Source of the DNA: Escherichia phage fEgEco12
Direction: 5' to 3' (one strand)
DNA length: 64,000 bases
Sequence record: PP777464.1
The notes under the pieces are model-generated. The model was given only the letters and a program-made list of their open reading frames with translations, had not been told where the DNA came from and did not search any database. Numbering within the stretch: position 1 is the first letter of the stretch; every line of letters begins with the position of its first letter. Shown piece by piece: positions 15,185 through 53,565 of the stretch. The position numbers and the translations under genes are program-made.

Positions 15185-15643
15185 ATGGACGTATTAGCTA
15201 CTCAATTCAAACGCAACGCAGAAGAACGCGAAGGTTACCTAAGTATCAGTGAAGTGGTTGAAGATGGATTCAAGCAGTACATTTTCAACAGTGCAATTAA
15301 ACTGAAGCCAACAAAAGATTCACCGGATCGCAGCTTCACAAAGTGGATTGCATTCTGGGAAGAGTCACCAATTGCAATCGAAATGACTGTCATTACTACA
15401 GTACTGGAAACTGGTTACATCAAAGCAATTGTAGTTGATAAGAAAGTTCGTACTCTTGATGAAATCGGGACATATCCAGCACGTAACTCTAAAGTATTTG
15501 GGTGTTTAGTTGATGGTAAGTTTATGATTGAAAAAGATGCTAAGAACTATGTAATTGATAAACTACAAACCAGTGCTACTAAACAGGAAGTCGTAGACCA
15601 GAACGCAGTGGATGCTATTAAAAAGGCATGGGGACTGAAATAA
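15185..15643 (+). CDS. hypothetical protein
   Basis: 152-aa ORF. Confidence 0.55.
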   Translation: MDVLATQFKRNAEEREGYLSISEVVEDGFKQYIFNSAIKLKPTKDSPDRSFTKWIAFWEESPIAIEMTVITTVLETGYIKAIVVDKKVRTLDEIGTYPARNSKVFGCLVDGKFMIEKDAKNYVIDKLQTSATKQEVVDQNAVDAIKKAWGLK

Positions 15644-16065
15644 TGTTCACACTTAGCAATGCAAAGTATCTATTTCTTATTGCTATTATTGGTTGGGTTA
15701 TGGCTCCAGTGCTTAATGCACTGGGGTTTCTAGACGGACATAAACTTGTAAATGTTTCAGGTGTAATCCAGGGCATTTCATGGTATTCATTGATTATATT
15801 TTCTATATGTATTCATACATTTGCACGTGATTACCGCCGTCTGCTTTTTGTTAAAGTATTCGGTACTAAGAGATATAGTTTTGTGTTTACATTTATTTTA
15901 ATACCATGTATTATCTATGCTTTTGTATTTGATTACTATACTTATCTGTGGGTGTGTGGTTCTATGTTTGTTATGTTGGAATATACAAGAACTGTTCAAA
16001 ACTCATATGCTGATGAGTATTATGATCTTGAAGTTAAACGAAAATTAACGGAGCTAAACAAATGA
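15643..16065 (+). CDS. integral membrane protein
   Basis: multiple hydrophobic segments; internal ATG of track ORF 15628. Confidence 0.5.
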   Translation: MFTLSNAKYLFLIAIIGWVMAPVLNALGFLDGHKLVNVSGVIQGISWYSLIIFSICIHTFARDYRRLLFVKVFGTKRYSFVFTFILIPCIIYAFVFDYYTYLWVCGSMFVMLEYTRTVQNSYADEYYDLEVKRKLTELNK

Positions 16066-16487
16066 GGGGATACAATAAGATTTGTATTTTTGTATTTTTA
16101 GTTTGTGCAATCAATACATTTGGATATTACTGTACTGAAAACAACATTTCATATGGTTTAAATCCTTTGTGGTTTACAATTGCCAATGTAGCACAAATTG
16201 GTATTGCTGTTATGTCTGCACTTATGTTCTGTCCAATTGTCACTATGGATACTGATCATGAAAGGCTTGGATTTATCCGTGATACTGGAGACGAACCTTA
16301 CAGTAGATTGATTGTGTTGTATCCATTTATTGTTATTTTAGGTACTAACATCCAACTTGGGTCTTTATCTAATAGTGTTACTTCAGCAGCCATTACAGTC
16401 TTTGCATTCACATTTTTTATGGTACACAAATCAGTACTCAAATGGCACATCACCAAAATGGCAGAGAAAGGTACGGAAAACAGTTGA
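16062..16487 (+). CDS. integral membrane protein
   Basis: 141 aa, multiple hydrophobic segments. Confidence 0.5.
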   Translation: MRGYNKICIFVFLVCAINTFGYYCTENNISYGLNPLWFTIANVAQIGIAVMSALMFCPIVTMDTDHERLGFIRDTGDEPYSRLIVLYPFIVILGTNIQLGSLSNSVTSAAITVFAFTFFMVHKSVLKWHITKMAEKGTENS

Positions 16488-21872: not shown

Positions 21873-22123
21873 TGAAATATATCGTAGCAGTACTCGTTGC
21901 ATTTTTACTCACTGCATGTGACGCTTCAACAAAAGAACGCACAAGTGATTTTATTCTCCCTATTGAATTACAAGAAGCAGGATGTAAGATTTATCGTATG
22001 CAAAAGGACGGTGCTGGTGTAACCTTGTATACAGTTTATTGCCCTAATGCAAATACCAGTACTGGATACAGCAGCGGTAAAACACGAATCAATACTTCAG
22101 TGATTAATGGAGTACAACAATGA
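21872..22123 (+). CDS. putative lipoprotein
   Basis: signal peptide with lipobox LTAC. Confidence 0.55.
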   Translation: MKYIVAVLVAFLLTACDASTKERTSDFILPIELQEAGCKIYRMQKDGAGVTLYTVYCPNANTSTGYSSGKTRINTSVINGVQQ

Positions 22124-25806: not shown

Positions 25807-25884
25807 CGTTCAAAAAGTCTCTAATAGTATTAAATACTTCTGTACAAATAATATGTGCAGAAGTATTACTCGTTAGAGGTTATA

Positions 25885-26250
25885 ATGAAAAAATATATAA
25901 GAATGATAATGGTGTTTGTAGTATTCATGCTTTATTCAAGGTTCAGTACAGCCGTACCTGCTTACCTTGATTGTATGGGAAACGATGGAACATGGCATGT
26001 ACTTTCTAATGACCCACAAAATGGAAACAATATTGTCGTAGATAATGAGGTTTACCGTTTCAGGGCCGAGAGTTTGATTGGGAATAAAAAGGTATCGACA
26101 TATAAATCAGATGCTGGTATAATAGCAAATGTAATATTGATAGTGGACCCCAAGACAAAGGATGGGGATATTTACATAGTCATTTATCAAGATTCGTCGA
26201 ACAAACGCGATCAGGATATTGATAAATTGAATATTCATTGTGAACTTTAA
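25885..26250 (+). CDS. secreted protein (signal peptide)
   Basis: internal ATG; hydrophobic N-terminus. Confidence 0.5.
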   Translation: MKKYIRMIMVFVVFMLYSRFSTAVPAYLDCMGNDGTWHVLSNDPQNGNNIVVDNEVYRFRAESLIGNKKVSTYKSDAGIIANVILIVDPKTKDGDIYIVIYQDSSNKRDQDIDKLNIHCEL

Positions 26251-26260
26251 GGTATAACAA

Positions 26261-26644
26261 ATGATAAACGATGTAATGCTTTATGTATTAATTACTCCGA
26301 TTCTTATTAACTCAGTAATAACTATTTCAATGGCATTATTTGGTATAGTAGCAATTGTTTATGCTGTTAGTACTGGGAAGTATACTTTAATTAGTAAGGT
26401 TGATTCATGGTTCGCATCTGATAGTGTACCATATTCAGCTAGTATGATTACGATTGGTATTCTAATCGTTGCATTTACACTGCACTGTATTGGTTTTATT
26501 AATACAAGTATTTTTTCAGTTTTTATTGGTCTATCATTATATCCATCACTTTGGTACTTGATTTATGTAATCGATGTTTGGTATAATAACTACAAGCAGT
26601 ACAAAGTGAAGAAATCCATTTTATCCAAAGGAAACAAATCATGA
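26261..26644 (+). CDS. membrane protein
   Basis: 127 aa, multiple hydrophobic segments. Confidence 0.5.
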   Translation: MINDVMLYVLITPILINSVITISMALFGIVAIVYAVSTGKYTLISKVDSWFASDSVPYSASMITIGILIVAFTLHCIGFINTSIFSVFIGLSLYPSLWYLIYVIDVWYNNYKQYKVKKSILSKGNKS

Positions 26645-26991
26645 AAGTAATTTTGTTTTTTGTTTGTATGATTATATGTGGTATGTCTTATGCAGAACCA
26701 TTACCTGGACTAGTCTGTACTGAAGGTGATATTAAACACATTTACCAAGGTGATAGCGATGACCATACTATCGTTTATATCGATGGTGAAGTGTATAATT
26801 TTGTTAAAGAACATACTGTAGGTGACATTAGTTTTACGCAGTACTCGAATGATACTGATCCCAATATGCTTGCATTTCTTCAAGTTGATGTATATGAAGA
26901 AAGTAATGGCGAACAGTATGTTAAACTTGTGATGATGCGTAAGGCAGCAAAACAGGCAACATTCGGTGGCTTGTGTAAATATGAGGACTAA
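26641..26991 (+). CDS. secreted protein (signal peptide)
   Basis: 116 aa, N-terminal hydrophobic stretch then YAEP. Confidence 0.5.
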   Translation: MKVILFFVCMIICGMSYAEPLPGLVCTEGDIKHIYQGDSDDHTIVYIDGEVYNFVKEHTVGDISFTQYSNDTDPNMLAFLQVDVYEESNGEQYVKLVMMRKAAKQATFGGLCKYED

Positions 26992-30976: not shown

Positions 30977-31240
30977 ATGGCTGAAACATTATCACTATAT
31001 GCGTTAGTACTGTTATTTGTCGGATTTCTTCCCGCACTCATTACAGCCATTCGTGTTGTTAAACATGAAGCTGCATTGATTGTATGTAGTATTGGGTCGA
31101 ACATTCTATTGTATTTCTTTTTGACAAATACTATTGTACTGTTTGCTTTCTTTATCATGATTCTGTGGGTACTTGTAATTCTCGGATTCTTCATTTGGTC
31201 ATTGGTTGATCCTAAGAAAAAAACAGGAGAAGTGAAATGA
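30977..31240 (+). CDS. membrane protein
   Basis: 87 aa, three hydrophobic segments. Confidence 0.5.
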   Translation: MAETLSLYALVLLFVGFLPALITAIRVVKHEAALIVCSIGSNILLYFFLTNTIVLFAFFIMILWVLVILGFFIWSLVDPKKKTGEVK

Positions 31241-31533
31241 AATTAATTATTGTAATGATGATGTGTTTGGCTTTCCCAGTACTGGCTACTCCTAATCTGG
31301 ACTGCACACTGTTGCGTTCAGATGGTGACACACTTGAAATCAACACATATGAACTCTTTGGTCCAAGTGTAGTGGAGAATGAAACCACCTACAATTTCAA
31401 AGCTATTGACTTTGAAGGTAATGTTCCAGTACTAACTACAATGACTATTGACAAAACTACTTTGCTCGGACGAATCACCACACAACGCGGAGAAAGTAAA
31501 ACATTCACAGCGAAAGCTGACTGTAACTACTAA
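31237..31533 (+). CDS. secreted protein (signal peptide)
   Basis: 98 aa, hydrophobic N-terminus then LATP. Confidence 0.5.
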   Translation: MKLIIVMMMCLAFPVLATPNLDCTLLRSDGDTLEINTYELFGPSVVENETTYNFKAIDFEGNVPVLTTMTIDKTTLLGRITTQRGESKTFTAKADCNY

Positions 31534-31614: not shown

Positions 31615-33126
31615 ATGAAATCTATGGAGAGAAATCAAATGCCAGGTCAATTTACTGATAAAAATGGCGGGAACATGGCAGGTCACTCTGATAAATGGAG
31701 TGAACGCAATCGTCGTCAAAATAGCTACCAAGCAGGACAGGGGTCACGTGGTTCACGTAATCAAGGGACAGGTTTAGCTGGTAAGGCAAACGCAGAAGCA
31801 GGTGAAGTTAAGAGTACTGAGAACATGACTGAGCTAGAAAAGCTACGTTATGTTAACTCATTAGGTCTTCTTAACGCAACACAGAAACAACGCCTTGCTG
31901 ATATGGAACGTGCTGAGAAAGAACAAGCAGTTCCTAAAGAAGAACCAAAACCAGAAGCTCCTAAAGCAGCTAACCCTGTTAAAGAGTTATCTGATAACTT
32001 AGGTAAGATCTTTGCTAACAAACCACAGTTGATTCAGGGTATTGTCAAAGCACTACAGGCAGTTCCTAAAGAAGAACTCAAAGGTAAAGCACAAGCTGTA
32101 CTTGATGCAATGAAAGGTAATAAGAGCACTGAACCTACTGAAGTATTCAGTACTATCATGCGTGCACTTGAAGGTACACACAAAGAAGATTCGAAAGAAC
32201 CTGAACAGGGTGAAGCAAGTCTTGATGGTATTCTTAAAACTTTTGATAGTATTGGTAAAGCAGACCGTGCTAATGCCCAGCAAGTCAAGAATGTACTGGC
32301 TAAACTTGAAAACCGTTTAGAAGGTAAAGACGATAAGGTTAAGCTCGTATCAGATGCAGTTAACAGTGCACTTAAATCTTATGTACAAGGTGAGAAAAGT
32401 CGCTTCGTAACAGCTATGGATGCTGCATTCAACACTATGAAAAAGTATGAAGCAGAACATGGTGAGAAAGTGACACCTGATGGATATCTACTACGTAAAG
32501 ATGAAGAAGGTGCAGTTGAACAGAAAGATGTTGAGCCTGAGCAAGAAGATCTACCTGATACCGTTGATATGGATGGATACATTCATCGTCCTGAGATGGA
32601 AGAGTTTGGGTCAGATAAAGAAGGTTTTGAACATGCAATGGCAGTATATAAAGCATTAGTTAAAAATCCAGATTATGCTAACCGTTTTGTTGACGAGTTT
32701 GATAGTGCATGGAATAACTATAAAGACAAAGGTTATGACTTCCCTGCTGAAGCTGCATTCTTTGAACTTGGTAAACTATTAGCTAAACATGGAATTGACG
32801 TTGGTTCATCTGATTCTGATGGTATGGAAGAAGAACATCTTGAAATGACTGATAAATCAATTCATGAACTTCAAAAGTTAATGATGTGGATATCCGAGAT
32901 TGGTAAAAAAGCAGGTGCTGATAGTAAAAGTATCAACAAAAATATTAGTTGGATTAAAGATAATGTTGGTAACAATGCTCGTAAACTTCAAAAGGCTTGG
33001 GCTGATTTAGTAAATGGTGCAGATGATGTTGACATTGAATCACCAGAAGCATATGAGTATGCACTAACTACACTTGATAACTCATTCAAAGAGTACGACC
33101 GTGGTGTTGGAAAGGATAAAAAATAA
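31615..33126 (+). CDS. hypothetical protein, 503 aa, K/E-rich
   Basis: largest + strand ORF in window. Confidence 0.65.
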   Translation: MKSMERNQMPGQFTDKNGGNMAGHSDKWSERNRRQNSYQAGQGSRGSRNQGTGLAGKANAEAGEVKSTENMTELEKLRYVNSLGLLNATQKQRLADMERAEKEQAVPKEEPKPEAPKAANPVKELSDNLGKIFANKPQLIQGIVKALQAVPKEELKGKAQAVLDAMKGNKSTEPTEVFSTIMRALEGTHKEDSKEPEQGEASLDGILKTFDSIGKADRANAQQVKNVLAKLENRLEGKDDKVKLVSDAVNSALKSYVQGEKSRFVTAMDAAFNTMKKYEAEHGEKVTPDGYLLRKDEEGAVEQKDVEPEQEDLPDTVDMDGYIHRPEMEEFGSDKEGFEHAMAVYKALVKNPDYANRFVDEFDSAWNNYKDKGYDFPAEAAFFELGKLLAKHGIDVGSSDSDGMEEEHLEMTDKSIHELQKLMMWISEIGKKAGADSKSINKNISWIKDNVGNNARKLQKAWADLVNGADDVDIESPEAYEYALTTLDNSFKEYDRGVGKDKK

Positions 33127-33135
33127 ACATTTAAA

Positions 33136-33162
33136 AGGTTGACTTCGGTCAACCTTTTTTTG
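33136..33162 (+). terminator. UUCG-tetraloop terminator (PeSL-like hairpin, weak -10)
   Basis: AAGGTTGAC-TTCG-GTCAACCTT then T7. Confidence 0.7.
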
Positions 33163-33810: not shown

Positions 33811-33816
33811 AAGAAA

Positions 33817-33850
33817 AGGGTTGACTTCGGTCGGCCCTTTTTGCTATAAT
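33817..33850 (+). promoter_or_regulatory. fused terminator hairpin plus early promoter (PeSL-like cassette)
   Basis: AGGGTTGAC-TTCG-GTCGGCCCTT then TTTTTGCTATAAT. Confidence 0.65.
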
Positions 33851-33876
33851 CATTTCATCAACTACTGGAGGCAAAC

Positions 33877-34290
33877 ATGTTAAAAGTTATTTTCCGTTCT
33901 ATCAGTTCATTACTTCTTATGATTAGTTCAGTTTGTTATGCAAATGAAGTATCTGATTTATTTGAGAAGAATTACCCAACTGCACAAGAGATGGGTGTTT
34001 TAAAATGCAAGCTAACTTCGTACAACATCATCGGCAGTAAACTTGTACTGGAACATGAACGTAGTACACCAATCCCTCTAGTGGAAGAAGGTAGTACCTT
34101 TAGCTTCAAGTACGGGGTGAATGTAACATCTGGTGTAATGAACAATGTTGATGCAGAGACTGGTTCAACATGGAGTACTAGCGGTAAAGATGTGTTTCAT
34201 CGTATGCGTGAAAATGGTAAACTGAAGTACGTATATGAAAGTTCATTCATGAAACGTGTATTCATTATAAAAAATTGTGTACCAGCATAA
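33877..34290 (+). CDS. secreted protein (signal peptide)
   Basis: 137 aa. Confidence 0.55.
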   Translation: MLKVIFRSISSLLLMISSVCYANEVSDLFEKNYPTAQEMGVLKCKLTSYNIIGSKLVLEHERSTPIPLVEEGSTFSFKYGVNVTSGVMNNVDAETGSTWSTSGKDVFHRMRENGKLKYVYESSFMKRVFIIKNCVPA

Positions 34291-34301
34291 GGAACAACAT
34301 C

Positions 34302-34577
34302 ATGCGTTCATTTGAAAACTTAATCGGTAAACTTCGCTTACAAGAAATTGAAGCTGATGTGAAGGAATTATCTGAAACTAAGAGTTACATTCATTTAGAT
34401 GAACTGTTTATTAAGTACGGTGAGATTGGTTTTAAGTCATTATTTGTGTTTGTCATGAAGGTGCATAGTTTAAAGTACTTTGATTTGAGTTCAAAAGACG
34501 GACAACCAAATCTGTATTACATGTATTATCTTAAGAACATAGACGAAGCTAATACATTATTCTTAGAATATATGTAG
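34302..34577 (+). CDS. hypothetical protein
   Basis: internal ATG of track ORF 34275. Confidence 0.45.
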   Translation: MRSFENLIGKLRLQEIEADVKELSETKSYIHLDELFIKYGEIGFKSLFVFVMKVHSLKYFDLSSKDGQPNLYYMYYLKNIDEANTLFLEYM

Positions 34578-34586
34578 GGGTAAAAA

Positions 34587-34925
34587 ATGGAACAACATTT
34601 TGAATTAATTAATAAGGTATCATTTTATGTAGTATCGTTAATTTGGGTGTATTACATGTTTTGTTACATTATTGCATTCTTCCGATACACGACCTTGTAT
34701 CAACGCATATACTACGATGCACCAATTTCATTTTTGATGTTCAGTGCATGTACGTGGGGGATAATTGAAGCACTGGCATGTGGATATAGTACGGACGAAT
34801 TAAATCTCGTATCGGTGTTGACATTACTAACAATTGCTACTATGATAGCTACAGTTCCGATATTTTTGCTCTTTAAACTGCTTCATCGCATCGATGAGTG
34901 GCGTAATAAAATCCCTGAAAAGTAA
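34587..34925 (+). CDS. small 3-TM membrane protein, family member A1
   Basis: 112 aa; C-terminal RIDEWRNKIPEK. Confidence 0.6.
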   Translation: MEQHFELINKVSFYVVSLIWVYYMFCYIIAFFRYTTLYQRIYYDAPISFLMFSACTWGIIEALACGYSTDELNLVSVLTLLTIATMIATVPIFLLFKLLHRIDEWRNKIPEK

Positions 34926-34934
34926 GGATTGATA

Positions 34935-35276
34935 ATGATTTTTTACACTAATGCGTTTGCTTATGCCGTTGCATCAATCTACATTGTGTACTTCTTATTT
35001 GGTGGAGTACTGTACTTCTTTAAGTACAAAACATTGTTTAACCGAATGTATCCAAATCATCCAATTGTAGTAGTACTTTTGATTATTTCTGTTGCTCACA
35101 TCATTGTAGAAACAATAATGGGTATTAGTGCAGTACATTACAGTCTAGGTACTATTGTGATTATTACTATGATCATCGCATACATTTTAGTAATGGGTTC
35201 TGGTTTATTTGGGAATGTAGCAATGAAATTGTATAATCGAATTAAAACCTTACGTGATAATCTACCGGAGCGTTGA
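34935..35276 (+). CDS. small 3-TM membrane protein, family member A2
   Basis: ATG 34935 preferred over TTG 34929; C-terminal LRDNLPER. Confidence 0.6.
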   Translation: MIFYTNAFAYAVASIYIVYFLFGGVLYFFKYKTLFNRMYPNHPIVVVLLIISVAHIIVETIMGISAVHYSLGTIVIITMIIAYILVMGSGLFGNVAMKLYNRIKTLRDNLPER

Positions 35277-35277
35277 G

Positions 35278-35622
35278 ATGTATAATTTAAATTTAATCTC
35301 ATATATCATAACAACACTGTTTACTTTCTATACCTTTGTTGGTATACTCCTACTGTACTTTAAATTTTATAAACTCTTTGACCGTTTATATCCATCATTG
35401 GAACATGAATTCTTATTGGTGATGTACATCTGTTTAACGTGTATGTCTACATTTTTCACTGTATTTGATGGTATCATCGGTATTAAAGCTGAAGATCCAA
35501 ATGGTAGTACACTTGTTGCCTTTATCCTGGTAGGATTCTTCGGTACTTATATCACTTTCATTTCAACATGGTCTGTGGTTGATTATCTCATTAGATTACG
35601 AGATAAAATGCCAAATCGATAG
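35278..35622 (+). CDS. small 3-TM membrane protein, family member A3
   Basis: ATG overlaps upstream stop; C-terminal LRDKMPNR. Confidence 0.6.
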   Translation: MYNLNLISYIITTLFTFYTFVGILLLYFKFYKLFDRLYPSLEHEFLLVMYICLTCMSTFFTVFDGIIGIKAEDPNGSTLVAFILVGFFGTYITFISTWSVVDYLIRLRDKMPNR

Positions 35623-35631
35623 GGGGTTGCT

Positions 35632-35889
35632 ATGTTTGCATTGCGTAATAAAAATACAAAAGAGATTCTATGTATCTCAACAGTATGGGATTGTGCAGGA
35701 AGTGAAATGATTCTCGAAGAAGGTTCAGGTGATTGTGTTTATGTTGTTCAGGATCGTCGCGAACTGGAATCATTACTTGACGAATTTAATGCTGGTGGAA
35801 ATCCTAAAAGTACTCAATTCCCTGAGATCAGGAATCCAGCACCACCAGGCTCTTATGAAATTCTACAACTGTGGGAGATGGATAAGTAA
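35632..35889 (+). CDS. hypothetical protein
   Basis: 85-aa ORF. Confidence 0.5.
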   Translation: MFALRNKNTKEILCISTVWDCAGSEMILEEGSGDCVYVVQDRRELESLLDEFNAGGNPKSTQFPEIRNPAPPGSYEILQLWEMDK

Positions 35890-36269
35890 TGCGTCAAATG
35901 CACAAAGTAACCGAGCTAAACAAGCGTCTGATTAAACAATCAATGTTTGAGGATAAAGAGTCTTACTATAACTTCAAACGTGCTGTAGAGGCTGCTATCC
36001 ACATTCAGAAGCTTAAAGATAGTGGATGTATTATTCTCGAAAATGGTTCTGACGTTGTTACTGATGACTTCAGTGTAGCGTTTGATGTTTCACCTGATGG
36101 TTCGCTATCAATGCCACGCTTAGGGACTGGTGACATGACTGTGTGGGTAGGTTTCACTATGGGGAATGTACCAGGTACGGTGTATGTAGATGATGCTGAG
36201 TTGAAAGAAAGCTTCAAAAACTTATCGCATCTTGAACCACAATACGCACATGAAATGAATTTATTTTGA
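35889..36269 (+). CDS. hypothetical protein
   Basis: 126-aa ORF. Confidence 0.55.
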   Translation: MRQMHKVTELNKRLIKQSMFEDKESYYNFKRAVEAAIHIQKLKDSGCIILENGSDVVTDDFSVAFDVSPDGSLSMPRLGTGDMTVWVGFTMGNVPGTVYVDDAELKESFKNLSHLEPQYAHEMNLF

Positions 36270-36271
36270 GT

Positions 36272-36299
36272 TGACAAACTCATTCAGTACTGTATAATG
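36272..36299 (+). promoter_or_regulatory. early promoter TTGACA-N16-TATAAT with extended -10 TG
   Basis: TTGACA 36272-36277, TGTATAAT 36292-36299. Confidence 0.6.
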
Positions 36300-36345
36300 T
36301 TTATCAAGGGGATGAACTTCTCATCCCCACAATCGAGGAATTGTC

Positions 36346-36900
36346 ATGATTACTTTTAAGAAAACTGCTAACCACATCCATGAGATCTACATTAACGGTC
36401 ACAAAGCTGGCCTTCTTCGTTTACTCGCCCATCATCCGAATATTACCGTATCTGATAATGAACCTAAAGATTGGCGTGTATTTTTCTTTGGAAAGTACAG
36501 TGATTTTCAAGTATCAAACCTGAAGAACATTCGTTCAGTATGCACGTTAACTGAAATTAAAGAAAAGTTAACCAAAGCATTGAAAACTAATCCAGATAGT
36601 GTTCTTCCACCTGATAACTTTGTAGAGAAAGGATATGCCTTAGCTCATTTCAAAGATGGTACTATTCAATCTATCAGTACTGAATATGAATATCAATGGA
36701 CTGAGTACTTCACTTATGGATCGCGTAATACATTGATGGCTTCACGTAGTAAATTGGAAGAAGTACTGACTCGTATGAATGAACGCGAGCGTCAATTTTA
36801 TGACAAACCAGAAATGTGGAGTTCAACTTACATTGACCGTATTGACTATGTTATTATGACTCCAATCTTTGACACTGCTTACTATGATTCTTTGAAATAA
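36346..36900 (+). CDS. hypothetical protein
   Basis: 184-aa ORF. Confidence 0.6.
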   Translation: MITFKKTANHIHEIYINGHKAGLLRLLAHHPNITVSDNEPKDWRVFFFGKYSDFQVSNLKNIRSVCTLTEIKEKLTKALKTNPDSVLPPDNFVEKGYALAHFKDGTIQSISTEYEYQWTEYFTYGSRNTLMASRSKLEEVLTRMNERERQFYDKPEMWSSTYIDRIDYVIMTPIFDTAYYDSLK

Positions 36901-36911
36901 GGATAACTTAT

Positions 36912-37088
36912 ATGAAACTACGTACTCGTAATCGACTGATGGATGCACTGTACCATGAACAGCTTTCACTGAATGAAGTGAAGCGACAGTTAATGTACAC
37001 ATATCTGTTACCCGCTCGCATTGCAAAACAACGTGCTAAAGAATTGCTGAAAGAAGCAATCGAGTACTGGGAATCTGATTCGTACTAA
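36912..37088 (+). CDS. hypothetical small basic protein
   Basis: 58-aa ORF, hand-translated. Confidence 0.4.
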   Translation: MKLRTRNRLMDALYHEQLSLNEVKRQLMYTYLLPARIAKQRAKELLKEAIEYWESDSY

Positions 37089-37116
37089 TTGTCACGTTAA
37101 TTAAGTGAGGCGATAA

Positions 37117-37368
37117 ATGAAAATTTTATTAGTTCTAATACTACTAATTGTTTTACCATTTACGTTAGTATCCCCTGAACTTGCATGGAATGTGTTTGTG
37201 TACTTACTATGTACTATTGTAGTAAATGGTATCTTGTTCTTAGTTCTATTCATAAATGGAATAGGACACGGTGGAGGATGGACCAGTACTGCTGATATTG
37301 TACATAAAACCACTATGTCTTTATTTGTAGTGTGGAATTTATTCTGGACTTGGTTTGTGTTCTTCTAA
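37117..37368 (+). CDS. small membrane protein
   Basis: 83 aa, three hydrophobic segments. Confidence 0.5.
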   Translation: MKILLVLILLIVLPFTLVSPELAWNVFVYLLCTIVVNGILFLVLFINGIGHGGGWTSTADIVHKTTMSLFVVWNLFWTWFVFF

Positions 37369-37377
37369 TTAAAAAAT

Positions 37378-37749
37378 ATGAATATAGATTTGAAAGGTGC
37401 AACACGAACTGTCATACTCATTGGGGAATATGCTATCAAGATTCCAACCTTTAAAAGTTGGAAGCTATTCTTAACAGGGATGATAGCTAACCTCAATGAA
37501 CGTTCGTGGATGCAGTACTCCAAGCGTAGTAATAGTGGTATCTGCCCTACGTTGTGGTCATCATGTACTGGACTAGTAACTGTACAGAAGCGTTGTAAGC
37601 CAGTGCAACATAGGGGTTTATTTTGGGTGGAGTTGTGTGCTTTAGCATTGGATTCAGAGTTAAGTACTGACTTCTTCTATTCAGATGCGAAGCCAGAAAA
37701 CTTTGGGTATCTGTGTGGTAAGTTGGTTAAACTTGATTATGGAGATTAA
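37378..37749 (+). CDS. protein-kinase-like mini ORF (Gly-rich loop/AIK ... DAKPEN ... DYG spacing)
   Basis: K21, D103-x-K-P-E-N, D120-Y-G at kinase-like spacings of 82 and 17 residues. Confidence 0.4.
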   Translation: MNIDLKGATRTVILIGEYAIKIPTFKSWKLFLTGMIANLNERSWMQYSKRSNSGICPTLWSSCTGLVTVQKRCKPVQHRGLFWVELCALALDSELSTDFFYSDAKPENFGYLCGKLVKLDYGD

Positions 37750-37750
37750 T

Positions 37751-38020
37751 ATGTACGCATTGTATAATAAAGAAAAGAAACGATTTGCTAAGGTTGAAAT
37801 TTCGATTGATACATTTGACATGTTGGAGTACTGTATTGTAACGGATTTATATGCTAACTTGTATTACGTTCTTGATGACGTATCAGTACTGCAACGATTG
37901 CTTGAGAATTCCAAAAGTCAATGCCAGGGCATCCATGATGGTTCATCTTATGAAACACCTGAGTGTTCCTACGGCTATCTGGACGGGTATGAGATTGTGA
38001 AGTTGGGGATTGTTGAATAA
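37751..38020 (+). CDS. hypothetical protein
   Basis: ATG after GGAG; track start 37685 overlaps upstream gene. Confidence 0.45.
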   Translation: MYALYNKEKKRFAKVEISIDTFDMLEYCIVTDLYANLYYVLDDVSVLQRLLENSKSQCQGIHDGSSYETPECSYGYLDGYEIVKLGIVE

Positions 38021-38032
38021 ATGGATTAAACA

Positions 38033-38446
38033 ATGAAGAAGTGTATCACGTGTAATATTGAAAAAGACATTAGTGAATTTGGTATAAGAAAAGATACTGG
38101 GAAACATAGAAATACATGCAAAGGTTGTAGTAATATTACCAGTAAGAAAACCAGAAATAAAAAAACTGATGTCAAAAAACTTGAAGAAATCAAAAGAAAA
38201 AATAAAGATTTCATGACCAGAGTTAAATCATTTTATGGTTGTAGTATTTGCATGATGAAGTATCCAGAATGTTTAGACTTTCACCATCTTGATCCTAATA
38301 CCAAAGAACATACACCAAGTTCTATGTTCAGTAAAAGTCGAGAATCTATCAAAGATGAAATTCGAAAGTGTATGATTCTTTGTTCTAATCACCATCGCAT
38401 GGTACATTCTGGTAGACTATGTTTGATTGAAAGAAAAAAGGGTTGA
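38033..38446 (+). CDS. HNH endonuclease-like protein with Cys-rich N-terminus
   Basis: CITCN...CKGC; HHLDP...N...CSNHH motif. Confidence 0.55.
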   Translation: MKKCITCNIEKDISEFGIRKDTGKHRNTCKGCSNITSKKTRNKKTDVKKLEEIKRKNKDFMTRVKSFYGCSICMMKYPECLDFHHLDPNTKEHTPSSMFSKSRESIKDEIRKCMILCSNHHRMVHSGRLCLIERKKG

Positions 38447-38472
38447 CTTCGGTCAGCCCTTTTTGCTATAAT
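38441..38472 (+). promoter_or_regulatory. fused terminator hairpin plus early promoter (PeSL-like) overlapping HNH stop codon
   Basis: GGGTTGAC-TTCG-GTCAGCCC then TTTTTGCTATAAT. Confidence 0.65.
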
Positions 38473-38500
38473 CATTTCATCGAAACGAGAGGATGAATAC

Positions 38501-39016
38501 ATGACACGCATTAACTTAGTACACGTTAAAGAACTTGCTGACCAACATCTGATGGCTGAATATCGTGAACTCCCACGTGTGTTTGGTGCTGTACAAAAAC
38601 ATGTTCAAGCACGTAAGCGAGTCCGTGATTTCAAAATTAACAGTACTTATCTGTTAGGTTCAGGTCATGTAACATTCTTCTACGACAAGTTATTGTACTT
38701 ACAGAAGCGTCATATTGAAATTGTTAACGAATGTTTGCGTCGTGGGATGAAGATTCAAAACACTGAAGTAAACGACATTAGCGGCATCCCTGCTGAGTTT
38801 TGTAATGACTACGCACCATCGGAGTCAGAGATTAAAATGTCTCGTGAGCGTTTGATTGAGAAGCTCCAGATGAAGCCTACTTGGTATAAATTTACTGACG
38901 TTGAACGCCCAGAGTACGTTAAAGATATGCAGGACGTAAGTAGTAATATAGAATCTAGTACTGATATGTTCGACGAAATTGAAGAACAAATCAAAGATGA
39001 AATGAATAATTATTAA
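38501..39016 (+). CDS. denV: pyrimidine dimer DNA glycosylase/AP lyase (T4 endonuclease V homolog) with C-terminal extension
   Basis: N-terminal MTRINL...[21 protein letters not shown]...KRVRDFKI...[10 protein letters not shown] matches T4 DenV from memory. Confidence 0.9.
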
Positions 39017-39022
39017 AGGAAA

Positions 39023-39055
39023 GGGTTGACTTCGGTCAGCCCTTTTTGCTATAAT
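39023..39055 (+). promoter_or_regulatory. fused terminator hairpin plus early promoter (PeSL-like cassette)
   Basis: GGGTTGAC-TTCG-GTCAGCCC; TTGACT 39026-39031; TATAAT 39050-39055. Confidence 0.65.
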
Positions 39056-39083
39056 TATTTCATCAACTGATGAGGATAACGAA

Positions 39084-39854
39084 ATGACCAGAGAAGCACG
39101 TAGCATTCAAATCCAGAAAAACTTCAACTCCATGATGGTTGCTCTTGAGTGTTTGCTCGACGATAGCAGTACTGTAAAAAGTATGGTTGTCAGCGGTGCA
39201 CCTGGTGTTGGTAAGACTTACACCCTGTCACAACGCCTCCAGAAAGCTCATGACGCAGCAGAATGGAACGTAGCCACTATCAGTGGTAAGATGACTACTC
39301 TTGCTCTGTATGAAGTTCTGTACAAGAATCGTCACAGCACTAATGTATTAGTACTGGATGATATGGACAGCATCTTTGATTCAGAAGACGGTATGAACCT
39401 GCTCAAAGCAGTACTGGACAGTGGTAAACGTACTGTGTCTTACATGACTAGCTCTAAGTACTTAACTACCAACGGTATCCCTAACAGCTTTGATTTTAAC
39501 GGTCGTATCGTATTCATTACTAACAAAGATTTAGCACTGAATGCTAAAGCTAAAACCAAAATGTCTGCTCACTATGCTGCTCTTATGTCTCGCTCTGTGT
39601 ATGTTGACTTACAGATCCAGACTAAAAGCGATATCATGATTCACATTGAAAACGTAATGAACAAGACCAACATCCTGTCAACTAAAGGTGTTAATAGTAA
39701 TGGTAGCAAAGCAATCCTGAATTGGATGCTGAAACATGAAGATGCACTTCGTGCTCCTTCACTGCGTATGCCTCTGTTGATTTCAGCAGTATACAACAAC
39801 AACCCGTATGATTGGGAAGAGCAGTGCGAAAACTTGTTCCTTGAGAAAATTTAA
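39084..39854 (+). CDS. P-loop NTPase (Walker A GAPGVGKT)
   Basis: SGAPGVGKT at residues 37-45; hydrophobic stretch then DD consistent with Walker B. Confidence 0.6.
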   Translation: MTREARSIQIQKNFNSMMVALECLLDDSSTVKSMVVSGAPGVGKTYTLSQRLQKAHDAAEWNVATISGKMTTLALYEVLYKNRHSTNVLVLDDMDSIFDSEDGMNLLKAVLDSGKRTVSYMTSSKYLTTNGIPNSFDFNGRIVFITNKDLALNAKAKTKMSAHYAALMSRSVYVDLQIQTKSDIMIHIENVMNKTNILSTKGVNSNGSKAILNWMLKHEDALRAPSLRMPLLISAVYNNNPYDWEEQCENLFLEKI

Positions 39855-39921
39855 TTACATGTATTGACAGTACTACCATAGTGTAGTACTATAACTTAAT
39901 ATTCACCACCGGAGATACGAT

Positions 39922-40260
39922 ATGCTTGAGTTTTTTAATTCAGATACAATGCTTAGTATTACTTTGATTTATCTATTTGGTTTTTTCTTTTATCATGCAC
40001 TAGTTGTAGTACTATGGTATTTTAAAAAGAAAATCGTTTTCAAACTGTATCCTGATGGAAACATTTCACTACTTCTTTTCACTATTATCCAAGGTATGTT
40101 TGCAATTGTTGGTCTTATCGCACACTTAATTTATTGTGCTAATCCACAGTTGAACTCAATATCACAATATATTGTATTCCTTGGATTACTAATTTGGGTG
40201 CTGATATACTTGTTTAATCTCATTATTAATGGTAGAGCAAAAATTCGTGGGGACTTCTAA
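39922..40260 (+). CDS. small 3-TM membrane protein, family member B1
   Basis: 112 aa; basic C-terminus. Confidence 0.6.
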   Translation: MLEFFNSDTMLSITLIYLFGFFFYHALVVVLWYFKKKIVFKLYPDGNISLLLFTIIQGMFAIVGLIAHLIYCANPQLNSISQYIVFLGLLIWVLIYLFNLIINGRAKIRGDF

Positions 40261-40607
40261 TGTTTGAATCTTATCTTGAGTTTTTAAAGAGTAGTTCTGT
40301 TGCACATTCAATTGCAGGGATTATTCTAACAGGTTATGTAACATTTTGGGTGGTTATGTTTCTAGGATGGTATTTTAAACGACAATTCTATAAGCGTAAT
40401 GGTGAAGATTTTATGAATTCTGTTATTAATCAATCGTTGTTTGCATCAACATTGATAGCATGTATTGTAGCAACACTCACAGGAAAGGTACTGCCAGCAT
40501 TCTCCGCAGTTTACGGTACATTGGGTATGATATGTGTAGTTTTTTACTTGACCATTAAACTTTGTTGTGTTATGATTGACCTTCGAAACAAGATACCGGA
40601 GGAATGA
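40260..40607 (+). CDS. small 3-TM membrane protein, family member B2
   Basis: C-terminal DLRNKIPEE; overlapping stop/start. Confidence 0.6.
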   Translation: MFESYLEFLKSSSVAHSIAGIILTGYVTFWVVMFLGWYFKRQFYKRNGEDFMNSVINQSLFASTLIACIVATLTGKVLPAFSAVYGTLGMICVVFYLTIKLCCVMIDLRNKIPEE

Positions 40608-40942
40608 TGGAATATTTTTTACACTTACTGCCGTGGTATATGAAAGTTAGTACTATGTACTATATTCTTAGTGCTGGATTCTACTTTCTGATGTGGTTCT
40701 TCAAACGACCAATTTCAGTATTCATCTCTGATAACATGCTGCAATTAAAATTACACGCATGGTTTTTTATGGCGATGTTTATGCCTATTATTCACTACTC
40801 AATGATTAGTAGAGGTTTACGTTCTAATGGTGAACCAATTATATTAGTATTCTATTGGGGTTCAACTATTGCATATGTAAGTTTGTTGTTGATCCCAGCC
40901 GTTCATAAATTACGTGCTAAAGTTCCTGATGCGAGGTACTAA
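40604..40942 (+). CDS. small 3-TM membrane protein, family member B3
   Basis: C-terminal LRAKVPDARY. Confidence 0.6.
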   Translation: MMEYFLHLLPWYMKVSTMYYILSAGFYFLMWFFKRPISVFISDNMLQLKLHAWFFMAMFMPIIHYSMISRGLRSNGEPIILVFYWGSTIAYVSLLLIPAVHKLRAKVPDARY

Positions 40943-41256
40943 TGGATATCGTAACATTGATTTACACGCTTTATTCATTCTATTTTATTATGTGTTGGGT
41001 TGGATTTTTATTTGTATTGAAGATGTTTGATTATGTTGAAAAACAGATAAAAGAATTTTGTATTCCTTTTATTGGGTCAACCATAATTAGTATTACTTGT
41101 TTGTATTATTTGGTATGTGATCCACCTGTTAATACAGCAATGATTGACTTCATGTTATTACCAACAACTGTTATTTTTTTATGTAGTCTGATGCCACCGA
41201 TTAGTCGTGGGCTAACCGAATTTAGACGCAATCAAAAGCGTAAACGAGGGATGTGA
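40942..41256 (+). CDS. small 3-TM membrane protein, family member B4
   Basis: C-terminal FRRNQKRKRGM. Confidence 0.6.
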   Translation: MDIVTLIYTLYSFYFIMCWVGFLFVLKMFDYVEKQIKEFCIPFIGSTIISITCLYYLVCDPPVNTAMIDFMLLPTTVIFLCSLMPPISRGLTEFRRNQKRKRGM

Positions 41257-41624
41257 TGGAAATTGCACTTATTATATTAACTGCTATGTTGTTTATTAGT
41301 ACAATTGTTATTATTGGCAAGTTCTTCTGTGTATCCTTCTTGGAAACCGTATACGATGAAATTGCTGATGATTATGAATTACATGCGGGATTTTTTACTA
41401 CGTATTGGATTAGTTTATTACTACTTATCACTGTATGGATTTTACATATATTCAAATGGGGTATGGTAGATGGTGATCCAGTACTGGCAATTATCTGTGT
41501 AGTGTTTGGTCTACTCGGTGGTGCTGTCCATAATCTGATGGTAATTTGGCAAACCGTACAATATGTATTAGTTCCACATTTTCAGAGAATGCACCAAAGC
41601 ATCAAATACCGCAAACGAGGATAA
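41253..41624 (+). CDS. small 3-TM membrane protein, family member B5
   Basis: C-terminal IKYRKRG. Confidence 0.6.
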   Translation: MMEIALIILTAMLFISTIVIIGKFFCVSFLETVYDEIADDYELHAGFFTTYWISLLLLITVWILHIFKWGMVDGDPVLAIICVVFGLLGGAVHNLMVIWQTVQYVLVPHFQRMHQSIKYRKRG

Positions 41625-41625
41625 C

Positions 41626-41988
41626 ATGAATAATATTGAATTATCTTTTATTGGTCAATTAATGGTAATGGCGTATACATTTATCTTCTCACTGAATGCA
41701 TTCGTGTGCATTGGGAAGTACTTCCATAAGCGACCATTATCAAATATATATGATGTAATACAAAGGAGATATAGTCCAGCATATACTGTGTTGAGTACAG
41801 CATTCAATTTTGGTTTTATTCTAATGCTGGTTGCATTATTAACATCGAGTTCGAATTTTATAACATTTGGTATTATGGTATGTTCACTAACACTGTGTGT
41901 GGTTATTCTCTGTGCATCCGTTGAGTTGCTGGCATGGATGTATAATAAGATTTCCGAAATCCATGAGCGTTTAGGTAAGAGGAACTAA
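41626..41988 (+). CDS. small 3-TM membrane protein, family member B6
   Basis: C-terminal HERLGKRN. Confidence 0.6.
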   Translation: MNNIELSFIGQLMVMAYTFIFSLNAFVCIGKYFHKRPLSNIYDVIQRRYSPAYTVLSTAFNFGFILMLVALLTSSSNFITFGIMVCSLTLCVVILCASVELLAWMYNKISEIHERLGKRN

Positions 41989-41989
41989 A

Positions 41990-42361
41990 ATGAGTTATCG
42001 TGAAATATTTTCGATCATTACTATTATTGTGTTTAGTTTAGGTTCTTTGATTTGGTTATTGTATTACTTCTGTGTAACCCCAGTATATAATATGCTAAAT
42101 TCAGTTCGCTCTGATGTTGGTATTGTTTCTTTTATTATCTTCATGACATATTATATGCTAAGTATCACAGGTTTGGTTTTGGTTGTTATCTTTGACCTTG
42201 GACCGAATCAAGATGGCATGGAGATGTGGGAATTGATAACGATGTTTGCATGTATGATACCTGCATTTGGTGTATGTGCTGGTGTATTTTATGGGTTGTG
42301 TAAAGGTGTGAACTACTTAAAAAATATCCACAATACTATTCGTAAAAAACGTATGTTATAA
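41990..42361 (+). CDS. small 3-TM membrane protein, family member B7
   Basis: C-terminal IRKKRML. Confidence 0.6.
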   Translation: MSYREIFSIITIIVFSLGSLIWLLYYFCVTPVYNMLNSVRSDVGIVSFIIFMTYYMLSITGLVLVVIFDLGPNQDGMEMWELITMFACMIPAFGVCAGVFYGLCKGVNYLKNIHNTIRKKRML

Positions 42362-42367
42362 TAAAAA

Positions 42368-42392
42368 ATCCAGTACTATAATAGTACTGGAT
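42368..42392. terminator. bidirectional hairpin between convergent membrane-protein and cassette arrays
   Basis: TCCAGTACT-ATAAT-AGTACTGGA. Confidence 0.65.
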
Positions 42393-42397
42393 TAATT

Positions 42398-43522
42398 TTA
42401 ATTATCTAAGCCACCAATTACACTGAACTGTGTGGTAACGTCTGAACTATTATCTATGTAAGTTCTTCTACCAACATAATATAGTTGTCCTTTTGCTTGA
42501 ATAAAAGTTACGGTCCCTGTATTGAATGTTATAATATCATTGTATGTAATGTCAGGTGGTAGTGCTGCTGATAACGCAGTAACTTTACTTAATGCAGCAC
42601 TAGTACTACCATTTATACCAGCAGCAATACTACCAGTACCATAGAACTTATTATCTTTACCAATGAATACGTTGGCTGATGCTTGTGTAGCTGATGTTAT
42701 TGCCTTACCAATTTGGAATGCGGTTCCTATGGTGTATGGTGTGCTCCTGGCTGCGTCTATGCTTTGTGTATATCCATCCCCTAGCTGACCATTAACTTTG
42801 TCACCACATGAGTATAGAGTACCATTGAGGCTGTATATGATCCCACGGTTAGAGAAGCTAACAGCTTCTGCATTAGTCCATACTGGTGCGGTGTATGAGT
42901 TTACACGACTAGCGGTAGTTCCTAGACCTAGTATACCATATGTGTTATCACCACATCCAAACCATTGTCCAGAACTGTTTTGATAGAACACTGAACGTTC
43001 TGTTGATTCCATGCGTACAGCATCCACAGCACCACTTTTAACGAACGAAGTTGATGAGGATGTAGTACCAGTACCCAATGCACCATAAGTGTTTGTACCA
43101 ATCGCATAGATTGATCCTAGTGGTGTCATAACACGTATGCAGTTATATCCCAATTGAACTTTACATTCAAATAGGTTGTCCCATATTTCAGGAACAGCAG
43201 AAAATAAATTTGTAATTTCGAACCATGATGTTGTCGAATCAGTTAATCCAATACTGCTTTTGTTTCCTAAAATGAAAACAGTTTTGTCCTTCTTAATTAT
43301 CCATGATGATAGGAAACCTATCTCACAGCTATGAACATTTGATTCTATTTGGGTAATATAATACTTAACTGTGTTATCACCCATGAATGCCGCAGCACCG
43401 GATGCAAAAAGGTTTCCAGTTTGTTTATTTAAAATGTAGTTATTGTTTCCATATACACTAACATCATAAGAACTTTCTTGTTTTTCGTTCCCATAATCAA
43501 ATAACAATACGAAAGGTAACAT
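42398..43522 (-). CDS. cassette protein 15 (last in array): RCC1-like repeat beta-propeller, variant N-terminus MLPFVLLFDYGN
   Basis: GTNTYGALGTG, GDNTYGILGLG, GDKVNGQLGDG repeats. Confidence 0.75.
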   Translation of the reverse strand: MLPFVLLFDYGNEKQESSYDVSVYGNNNYILNKQTGNLFASGAAAFMGDNTVKYYITQIESNVHSCEIGFLSSWIIKKDKTVFILGNKSSIGLTDSTTSWFEITNLFSAVPEIWDNLFECKVQLGYNCIRVMTPLGSIYAIGTNTYGALGTGTTSSSTSFVKSGAVDAVRMESTERSVFYQNSSGQWFGCGDNTYGILGLGTTASRVNSYTAPVWTNAEAVSFSNRGIIYSLNGTLYSCGDKVNGQLGDGYTQSIDAARSTPYTIGTAFQIGKAITSATQASANVFIGKDNKFYGTGSIAAGINGSTSAALSKVTALSAALPPDITYNDIITFNTGTVTFIQAKGQLYYVGRRTYIDNSSDVTTQFSVIGGLDN

Positions 43523-44257: not shown

Positions 44258-44276
44258 GCCAGTACATAGTACTGGC
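44258..44276. terminator. GCCAGTAC...TACTGGC hairpin
   Basis: GCCAGTAC-ATAG-TACTGGC. Confidence 0.6.
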
Positions 44277-48979: not shown

Positions 48980-49051
48980 ATTTCCTCCTTTATTCATTAT
49001 ACTATATTTAATACAAAAAGAAAAGCCAGTACTCAAGTACTGGCCTATATT

Positions 49052-53495: not shown

Positions 53496-53565
53496 ATTTC
53501 CCTCCTTTATTCATTATACTATATTTAATCAAAAAGAATGCCAGTACTTGAGTACTGGCATTATG

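Follow-up and report, generated by a model that had tools for sequence, protein, structure and literature searches.

Why would a jumbo coliphage carry ten small membrane-protein genes of similar size in two compact blocks, and do these genes share a common origin and a common role? The question is raised by a 64,000-nucleotide (nt) stretch of Escherichia phage fEgEco12 (sequence record PP777464.1; this whole stretch is hereafter the window), in which three genes (block A, A1-A3) and, at a distance of 4.3 kb, seven further genes (block B, B1-B7) make up a module of ~3.5 kb in total. Here we report that the ten genes form one divergent, clade-specific paralogous family, a conclusion well supported by profile comparisons of their predicted products, and that the genes of block B represent seven or more distinct paralog lineages of old origin, arranged in a set order, which is likewise well supported. 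Comparison of related genomes further identifies the arrays as hot spots of recombination.

The RaK2/121Q-group jumbo phages are in therapy development, and >80% of their genes are without known function. All sequenced members of two genera retain the module, which has a probable counterpart in a third; its arrays are among the fastest-diverging and most recombined parts of the genome, and their products are predicted to reside in the host inner membrane from early infection. This combination of conservation, fast divergence and predicted early membrane location suggests that the module marks an interface of conflict, either between phages or between the phage and host defence. The general kind is already familiar from the fast-evolving small membrane open reading frames (ORFs) that large lytic phages have in hyperplastic regions. 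What appears to be new is the status of these genes as one family, the cross-genus conservation of the arrays behind an ATPase gene and their nature as recombination hot spots. Searches of the literature on Asteriusvirus, 121Q, PBECO4 and RaK2 turned up no description of the array genes, no transcriptome and no holin assignment, and in databases the array genes are deposited as hypothetical or membrane proteins.

A family of three-helix membrane proteins

In nucleotide searches, positions 34000-43000 match Escherichia phage EC.P1 at 99% identity and, in parts, other ~350-kb jumbo coliphages (121Q/PBECO4 group, genus Asteriusvirus) at 88-98%; by this comparison the source of the window is a 121Q/PBECO4-type jumbo coliphage, Asteriusvirus. 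An earlier note, drawn up from the letters of the window, had described the ten genes as paralogs encoding proteins with three hydrophobic segments. All ten ORFs, of 104-123 amino acids (aa), were found at the coordinates given there (Table 1; protein lengths count from the ATG starts used in related annotated genomes). The pairwise alignment that the note proposed for defining the family succeeded in part: BLAST was convincing for A1-A2, A2-A3 and B1-B2 only, and the remaining relationships needed profile comparison. The PHROGs database keeps these proteins in seven separate unannotated families of 'unknown function' (19285, 19454, 19046, 27396, 33258, 26405 and 27618), and nine of the ten window members match a PHROG, at 1e-46 to 1e-60 (A3 at 3e-4). 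Because pairwise similarity was weak and the PHROGs were split, ortholog groups were built from the window and phages 121Q, A4 and Turkey5, and were compared as profiles.

Alignment of these profiles by hhalign joined the A group to B2 at a probability of 86% (99 columns) and to B1 at 74%, B2 to B3 at 96.5%, B3 to B5 at 74% (105 columns), and B5 to B7 at 74% (113 columns) and to B6 at 63%, against at most 1.8% for column-reversed alignment controls. When each group was left out in turn, a hidden Markov model (HMM) made from the other seven groups recovered every omitted group, with best members at 27-37 bits, whereas reversed family sequences and all other window ORFs scored at most 15.9 bits. 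The paralogy claimed in the earlier note is thus confirmed by two kinds of profile test, with hhalign probabilities of 63-96.5% for the linked groups. Taken singly, the window copies of B3 and B4 score marginally (13.0 and 12.6 bits), and their orthologs reach 33.5 and 27.8 bits. B2 is the hub of the similarity network of the family, B3 its most conserved paralog and B4 its weakest-linked member. The paralogs have in common a [W/Y][Y/F]FK motif at the cytoplasmic end of the first transmembrane (TM) segment and a basic tail starting with (L/I)(R/H).

The family and group HMMs found no further members among the window ORFs. The small hydrophobic ORFs at 15628-16065, 16062-16487, 26261-26644, 30977-31240 and 37117-37368 were considered as candidates and rejected, since none obtained a family or group HMM score. 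The first two are adjacent, overlapping ORFs of 145 and 141 aa with three hydrophobic segments each. The last encodes a highly hydrophobic 83-aa protein that is 96-99% identical across Asteriusviruses, unlike the variable arrays.

Kyte-Doolittle hydropathy scans agree with the three segments described earlier for each of the ten proteins, TM1 and TM2 of B3 being weaker. Of the 360 six-frame window ORFs with a length of 50 aa or more, only 16 have at least three hydrophobic segments, nine of them being family members. An AlphaFold2 model of B2, built from a 39-sequence alignment, is all-helical, with a mean predicted local distance difference test score (pLDDT) of 76.6 and helices at residues 13-38, 55-73 and 77-110. 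Summed over the ten proteins, the K+R and D+E residues number 4 and 11 at the N-terminus, 29 and 19 in loop 1, 4 and 13 in loop 2, and 45 and 16 in the C-terminal tail, which gives K+R totals of 74 on the predicted cytoplasmic side and 8 on the periplasmic side. Applied to these counts, the positive-inside rule predicts an N-out, loop 1 in, loop 2 out and C-in arrangement, and so the topology prediction called for in the earlier note returns three TM segments in the N-out/C-in orientation. It is well supported that the ten genes encode small polytopic inner-membrane proteins with a periplasmic N-terminus and loop 2, and a cytoplasmic loop 1 and basic tail.

The size of these proteins, their predicted N-out/C-in topology and their basic tail match the outline of class I holins, and the genome papers of this phage group that were searched for the term make no mention of a holin. 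An identity as holins or antiholin-type lysis-timing proteins is nevertheless quite unlikely. Holins are normally single late genes; the genes described here number ten, in two operons with sigma-70-like promoters, and lie in a region of DNA-repair and nucleotide-metabolism genes, and no endolysin or spanin gene adjoins either block within the window. In addition, no holin match was obtained in Pfam or among the annotated PHROGs, even at E <= 1. A spanin survey lists 121Q and PBECO4, in its main text without coordinates.

Table 1. Genes of the two blocks, their expression signals and selected neighbours (positions in the window)
Feature	Position	Strand	Remarks
A1, 112 aa, 3 TM	34587..34925	+	phrog_19285 at 6e-48
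A2, 113 aa from ATG, 3 TM	34935..35276	+	ORF opens at TTG 34929; the ATG is the annotated start in WPEC3
A3, 114 aa from ATG, 3 TM	35278..35622	+	ORF opens at GTG 35254
B1, 112 aa, 3 TM	39922..40260	+	phrog_19454
B2, 115 aa, 3 TM	40260..40607	+	phrog_19046; phrog_16874 'membrane protein' at 1.7e-5
B3, 111 aa	40607..40942	+	alternative ATG 40604; phrog_27396
B4, 104 aa, 3 TM	40942..41256	+	phrog_33258; phrog_16874 at 0.011
B5, 122 aa, 3 TM	41256..41624	+	alternative GTG 41253; phrog_26405
B6, 120 aa, 3 TM	41626..41988	+	matches no PHROG
B7, 123 aa, 3 TM	41990..42361	+	phrog_27618; ~40% identical homologs in RaK2, K64-1 and Muenster
Block B sigma-70-like promoter, TTGACA-17-TACTAT	39864..39892	+	AGTACT inverted repeat in spacer
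Stem-loop and sigma-70-like promoter cassette AAAGGGTTGACTTCGGTCGGCCCTTTTTGCTATAAT	33815..33883	+	heads block A unit; 11/12 promoter matches
Bidirectional hairpin AATCCAGTACTATAATAGTACTGGATT between block B and RCC1-like array	42367..42393	.	conserved in WPEC3, 121Q and Turkey5
Signal-peptide protein, 137 aa	33877..34290	+	opens block A unit; hypervariable; from translation
NrdC.10-like ATPase, 256 aa	39084..39854	+	upstream of array in Asteriusvirus, RaK2 and GAP32
First RCC1-like gene of convergent array	42398..43522	-	recombination block in common with window-type B5-B7 alleles

The overlapping starts and stops reported before for both blocks are a feature of block B, where the junctions measure -1 nt (B1/B2 and B3/B4), -4 or -1 nt (B2/B3 and B4/B5) and +1 nt (B5/B6 and B6/B7). 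With junctions of only -4 to +1 nt, block B is tightly coupled translationally. Within block A, the A2/A3 junction is +1 nt, but A1 and A2 are parted by a 9-nt spacer and do not overlap. The C-terminal tails are basic in all ten proteins, as the earlier note had it, but the R-x-K-type motif that it ascribed to all of them is narrower in distribution: R-x-K-(I/M/V)-P is present in A1-A3, B2 and B3 and in part in B1, and B4-B7 end in (R/H)-x-x-I-x-K/R-K/R-(G/M/N). Throughout block B and at A2/A3, the final 2-3 codons double as the Shine-Dalgarno sequence of the next gene, namely CCG GAG GAA (P-E-E), CGA GGG or CGA GGA (R-G) and AAG AGG (K-R). The conservation of the C-terminal motif is therefore partly a matter of dual coding, and the motif was rejected as a purely protein feature; A3 and B7, the terminal genes of their blocks, keep basic tails nonetheless.

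Conservation, divergence and recombination of the arrays

Searches of Pfam, NCBIfam, PADLOC and PDB sequences with the ten proteins or the family profile gave no informative match. A word-index search with the family alignment returned 30 proteins, and 1.84 billion representative proteins, searched exhaustively with an HMM, yielded only 23 clusters, all of 89-127 aa. The hits of both searches are of the same size and type, those with a named source come from Asteriusvirus-type phages or E. coli records, and no distant relative of known function was among them. One hit whose contig was traced (P0046) lies within a tandem array of a similar kind. By tblastn, B3, B4 and B7 were located in 44 phage records, comprising 35 Escherichia/Salmonella Asteriusvirus-type and 9 Klebsiella RaK2-type records; block A is confined to the Asteriusvirus-type records.

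Block B follows the NrdC.10-like ATPase gene in all Asteriusvirus records and in the RaK2-type phages of Klebsiella; the coupled tandem arrangement was traced in the window and in WPEC3, 121Q, A4, Turkey5 and RaK2. The RaK2 array (ORF309-316) follows the ATPase after one non-membrane ORF, scores 34-112 bits with the group HMMs and has the order B2, B2', B1, B3, B4, B5, B7 plus one further 3-TM gene. In the Cronobacter phage GAP32, the NrdC.10-like ATPase gene is followed by six 3-TM genes and then by a gene for a DUF1190 lipoprotein. The six products (gp522, 523, 525, 526, 526A and 527) are described in GenBank as 'membrane protein, 3 transmembrane domains' on the basis of TMHMM and Phobius. 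They resemble the window proteins in size (107-119 aa), in the three TM segments, in position and in their K/R-rich C-termini (F-H-N-Y...K-R-G type), but the sequence similarity is weak, with family HMM scores of 18.4, 15.0 and 10.9 bits against at most 8.3 bits for reversed decoys. Taken together, these comparisons make it likely that the GAP32 array is homologous to the family. Since the RaK2 and GAP32 arrays are syntenic with that of the window, the paralogs predate the Asteriusvirus/Alcyoneusvirus split and probably the separation of Mimasvirus too. The idea that a NrdC.10-like ATPase is always accompanied by such an array was rejected, because NrdC.10 of T4-type phages precedes the unrelated NrdC.9 and NrdC.8.

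The DUF1190 lipoprotein gene is also present 3' of the array in other members of the group (A4_235, L003 10105-10656; RaK2 ORF317, L008 9794-10390; the GAP32 copy is GAP32_529, L010 7013-7636). The window and most Asteriusviruses lack this gene; its homologs occur in 127 records, widely distributed over rV5-like and other large enterobacterial phages.

With dN/dS values of 0.10-0.42 against 121Q, the array genes are real and under purifying selection. Their divergence within the genus is nonetheless far above that of their surroundings. In phage A4, the flanking proteins (g36346, g37117, g37378, DenV and the ATPase) share 94-99% identity with those of the window (ATPase 96%), whereas B1-B7 have 29-65% protein identity with saturated synonymous sites, and the one block A-type gene present shares 42% identity with A1. 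The nucleotide identity to A4 (92-95%) breaks off at 39856, where the ATPase gene ends. The arrays of A4, Turkey5/JNE01 and 121Q/window represent three deeply diverged types within one genus, with 27-67% mutual identity. Within orthologs compared to 121Q, the most variable segments are TM2 and TM3, with 66-72% identity; TM1 and the loops are at 86-90%.

Allele types are exchanged down to the level of single genes, and the recombination breakpoints are located in intergenic regions. WPEC3 is mosaic, with identities of 97.4% for B2, 91.9% for B3 and 99.2% for B5. Slurp01 and phAPEC6 combine a window-like B2 with 121Q-like B5 and B7, WPEC5 and TH47 have the reverse combination, and Sharanji and G17 have a window-like B4 only. 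The number of genes shifts as well: 121Q has an extra B1-like gene, Turkey5 two B4 genes and RaK2 two B2 genes, and block A comprises 1-3 genes. A frameshift splits the B4 ortholog of 121Q (gp228/gp229, L002 18452-18767) and that of the error-prone CMSTMSU record; the 40 other records have an intact copy.

These patterns bear on the main rival to the function that we favour below, namely that block B encodes one hetero-oligomeric inner-membrane complex needed for the phage's own cycle. Such a complex could be an ion or solute channel, a membrane anchor used in replication or assembly, or a device that the NrdC.10-like ATPase serves. We consider a complex possible, if somewhat doubtful. It would fit the retention of the seven paralog lineages in a fixed order across the 44 Asteriusvirus and RaK2-type records, the synteny with the ATPase conserved in three genera and the common cytoplasmic motifs ([W/Y][Y/F]FK and the basic tail), which suggest a common partner. 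The junctions of -4 to +1 nt, with the Shine-Dalgarno sequence inside the last codons of the preceding gene, are also in its favour, because tight translational coupling would ensure balanced amounts of the subunits. However, single genes are swapped between allele types, the copy number varies (B1, B2 or B4 duplicated; block A in 1-3 copies), B4 is frameshifted in the 121Q record and the divergence is far above that of the flanking core genes. The link to the ATPase is loosened by the promoter that parts it from B1, by the intervening non-membrane ORF of RaK2 and by the T4-type phages that have NrdC.10 without an array.

A bolder version is unlikely: that block B is an unrecognised multi-subunit machine of RaK2/121Q/GAP32-type phages, made of seven or eight three-helix subunits in fixed proportions. 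The adjacent ATPase might drive or assemble it, its exposed helices would be under arms-race selection, and it might be a phage-built channel or gate controlling traffic across the membrane of the infected cell.

Expression signals and genomic setting

Both operons follow host-type sigma-70-like promoters (Table 1), and for this reason the arrays are probably made from early infection; their early transcription is a reasonable inference from the promoter sequences. A GGAG sequence is located 8 nt upstream of the B1 ATG, and the block B promoter together with this GGAG is conserved in WPEC3, 121Q and Turkey5. The related phage PA5oct relies on the RNA polymerase of its host, and TTGAC/TATAATA promoters are present at its mapped transcription starts (PMC7318152).

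The promoter of the block A unit is part of a cassette of ~45-70 nt that is present as a direct repeat in three copies, at 33815-33883, at 38437-38505 (before denV) and at 39020-39088 (before the ATPase gene). The cassette consists of a stem-loop, AAAGGG TTGACTTCGGTCAG CCCTTT, with the -35 box TTGACT in the stem, followed by TATAAT. The stem-loop without the rest of the cassette is found at 33120-33160, and several intergenic sites in 121Q, A4 and Turkey5 also have copies of the cassette. It resembles the PeSL promoter-terminator cassettes that mediate the shuffling of modules in T4-type phages, and the hyperplastic regions of these phages, like the region studied here, have variable small ORFs between repeated cassettes of a stem-loop and an early promoter (PMC2839356, PMC4122927). 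The PeSL cassettes were described in T4-type phages and not in the RaK2/121Q clade, however, and the block B promoter is of another kind.

A separate 8-mer, CCAGTACT, occurs 55 times in the window against 1.9 expected occurrences, a count reached in 0 of 100 shuffles. It is often part of the palindrome CCAGTACTGG or of the stems of intergenic hairpins between RCC1-like genes, and examples include 42370-42390, 44258-44276, 49026-49043, 53541-53558, 22056-22065, 31276-31285 and 41478-41487. AGTACT is also found within the spacers of the sigma-70-like promoters at 39864-39892 and 36271-36298. The 8-mer may be a genome-wide terminator or regulatory motif.

The two operons are placed, with good support, in the non-structural, plus-strand part of the genome. 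Genes are on the plus strand until 42361, and the minus-strand RCC1-like array extends from 42398 to ~60750; the sign of the GC skew switches where gene orientation changes after 42361. The arrays lie in a DNA-repair and nucleotide-metabolism region, with the ATPase, denV, an HNH gene and the RCC1-like genes as neighbours. Block B ends, as had been noted before, at a bidirectional hairpin beside the RCC1-like array: the gap from the B7 stop to the stop of the first RCC1-like ORF is 36 nt and contains a hairpin with a 12-bp stem.

This proximity had led the earlier note to speculate that the membrane family and the RCC1-like array are functionally paired. In such a pairing the proteins could, for example, be membrane partners, exporters or immunity factors matched to individual RCC1-like proteins. 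The two arrays adjoin in every Asteriusvirus examined, the first RCC1 gene and window-type B5-B7 are found in exactly the same nine phages, and GAP32 has a lone RCC1-like gene near the end of its array if the ends of the linear record are joined. Several observations nevertheless make a pairing highly improbable. In RaK2 the membrane array is not followed by RCC1 genes, the two arrays run convergently and are terminated separately, block A lies far from the RCC1 array, and the copy numbers differ (10 membrane genes against 15 array genes by the count of the earlier note, and six against one in GAP32). The virions of phAPEC6, in which mass spectrometry detected 62 proteins, include the RCC1-like gp003, 005, 006, 007, 009 and 010; no protein was detected from the interval between gp011c and gp034c, which holds the annotated block A and B genes gp012c-017c and gp028c-029c (PMC7247149). 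The co-variation that was proposed as a check is present in that the first RCC1 gene tracks window-type B5-B7, but linkage alone predicts the co-occurrence of neighbouring genes, and a recombination block common to these adjacent genes is the simple explanation. The pairing is thus not upheld, and the family is now set apart from an array whose products are virion proteins.

The first RCC1-like gene itself has no tblastn match at E <= 1e-10 to the other RCC1-like paralogs in the same genomes. It was found in nine phage records only, the next-best hits being RCC1-family proteins of Clostridium phages at 28% identity. The single RCC1-like gene of GAP32 is on the opposite strand among virion-protein genes, a placement which implies that the Asteriusvirus array may be an expansion of an ancestral gene at a strand-switch point.

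The signal-peptide protein gene that opens the block A unit is 43% identical to its 121Q ortholog at the protein level, against 86-96% for nearby genes. In a metagenome contig (L005, 69-425), a gene for a signal-peptide protein is likewise immediately 5' of two A-type family members. More pairings of signal-peptide and three-helix small proteins, outside the family, are encoded at 25855-26250, 26261-26644, 26641-26991, 30977-31240 and 31237-31533, and two of their secreted proteins are weakly alike (31 bits). The early region seems to be rich in envelope-directed small proteins. The HNH endonuclease gene beside denV (38033-38446) is absent from this place in 121Q, A4 and Turkey5 and is probably a mobile insertion; relatives have other endonuclease insertions between denV and the ATPase gene, such as a 1.5-kb gene in WPEC3.

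Possible functions and comparison with known systems

The roles that the earlier note mentioned for small phage membrane proteins (superinfection exclusion, immunity or a holin-like function) are plausible in outline. By analogy with known systems, we tentatively favour the view that the ten proteins are early inner-membrane gatekeepers, which would block competing phages or membrane-acting defences and whose targets would differ by paralog. The proteins would insert into the host inner membrane early in infection and act as gatekeepers of the envelope, the variable TM2-TM3 hairpin of each paralog serving to recognise a target of its own at the membrane. One candidate target is the genome-entry apparatus of a competing phage, as in the superinfection exclusion associated with T4 Imm; another is a membrane-acting host defence or toxin, in the manner of the three-TM immunity proteins against pore-forming colicins. 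A conflict of this sort would account for the persistence of deeply diverged alleles and for their exchange by recombination, even one gene at a time, next to genes that stay almost identical. We count in favour of gatekeepers the family-wide membrane topology, the purifying selection, the early-type promoters, the lack of any array protein among those detected in phAPEC6 virions, the divergence of the alleles, the single-gene mosaicism, the changes in copy number and the variability of TM2 and TM3, as well as the envelope-directed neighbours, namely the hypervariable signal-peptide protein and the DUF1190 lipoprotein.

Other points weigh against gatekeepers. Every paralog lineage is kept and their order is conserved, whereas accessory exclusion genes are usually patchy, and on this point a complex fits at least as well. 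The higher variability of the TM helices may merely reflect weak constraint on hydrophobic anchors, and the timing of expression is read from promoter consensus only. Compared with gatekeepers, the complex accounts better for retention, order and coupling, and worse for allele swaps and duplications.

Database comparisons did not link the proteins to any of the candidate classes. No match to Imm or another annotated exclusion family was obtained in PHROGs, Pfam, NCBIfam or PADLOC, the only PHROGs matched being those of unknown function; no colicin-immunity family was matched in Pfam or NCBIfam at E <= 1; and the small 3-TM subunits of antiporters and complex I, MnhG/MrpG and NuoK, gave no match above the family-model cut-off. 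If the proteins do exclude other phages or neutralise defences, they bear on the design of phage cocktails and supply a natural set of membrane inhibitors that vary in specificity; if they form one complex, it is a new kind of phage-built membrane device.

Three known systems and one classification invite direct comparison. Class I holins of the lambda S105 type are proteins of ~105 aa with three TM segments, N-out/C-in topology and a charged cytoplasmic tail. The window proteins are like them in size, in the three TM segments, in the predicted N-out/C-in topology and in the charged tail, but their genes are multi-copy, have early-type promoters, lie outside a lysis cassette and have no holin-family match. 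Immunity proteins against pore-forming colicins (E1/Ia type) are inner-membrane proteins of ~110 aa with three TM segments, in which specificity resides in intramembrane helix contacts; the window family is correspondingly most variable in TM2 and TM3. These immunity proteins are plasmid-borne singletons that adjoin their toxin gene, whereas no toxin gene is evident here and there is no sequence match.

T4 Imm, which acts together with the periplasmic Sp, is a small early inner-membrane protein that confers superinfection exclusion in a large virulent myovirus. It serves as the mechanistic model for gatekeepers, and a small secreted protein is also encoded in this genome. Imm differs in being single-copy and shorter and in its lack of sequence similarity, against a ten-member family here. 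Finally, the PHROG families contain the same proteins, listed separately and unannotated, which are here joined as one paralogous family in conserved arrays.

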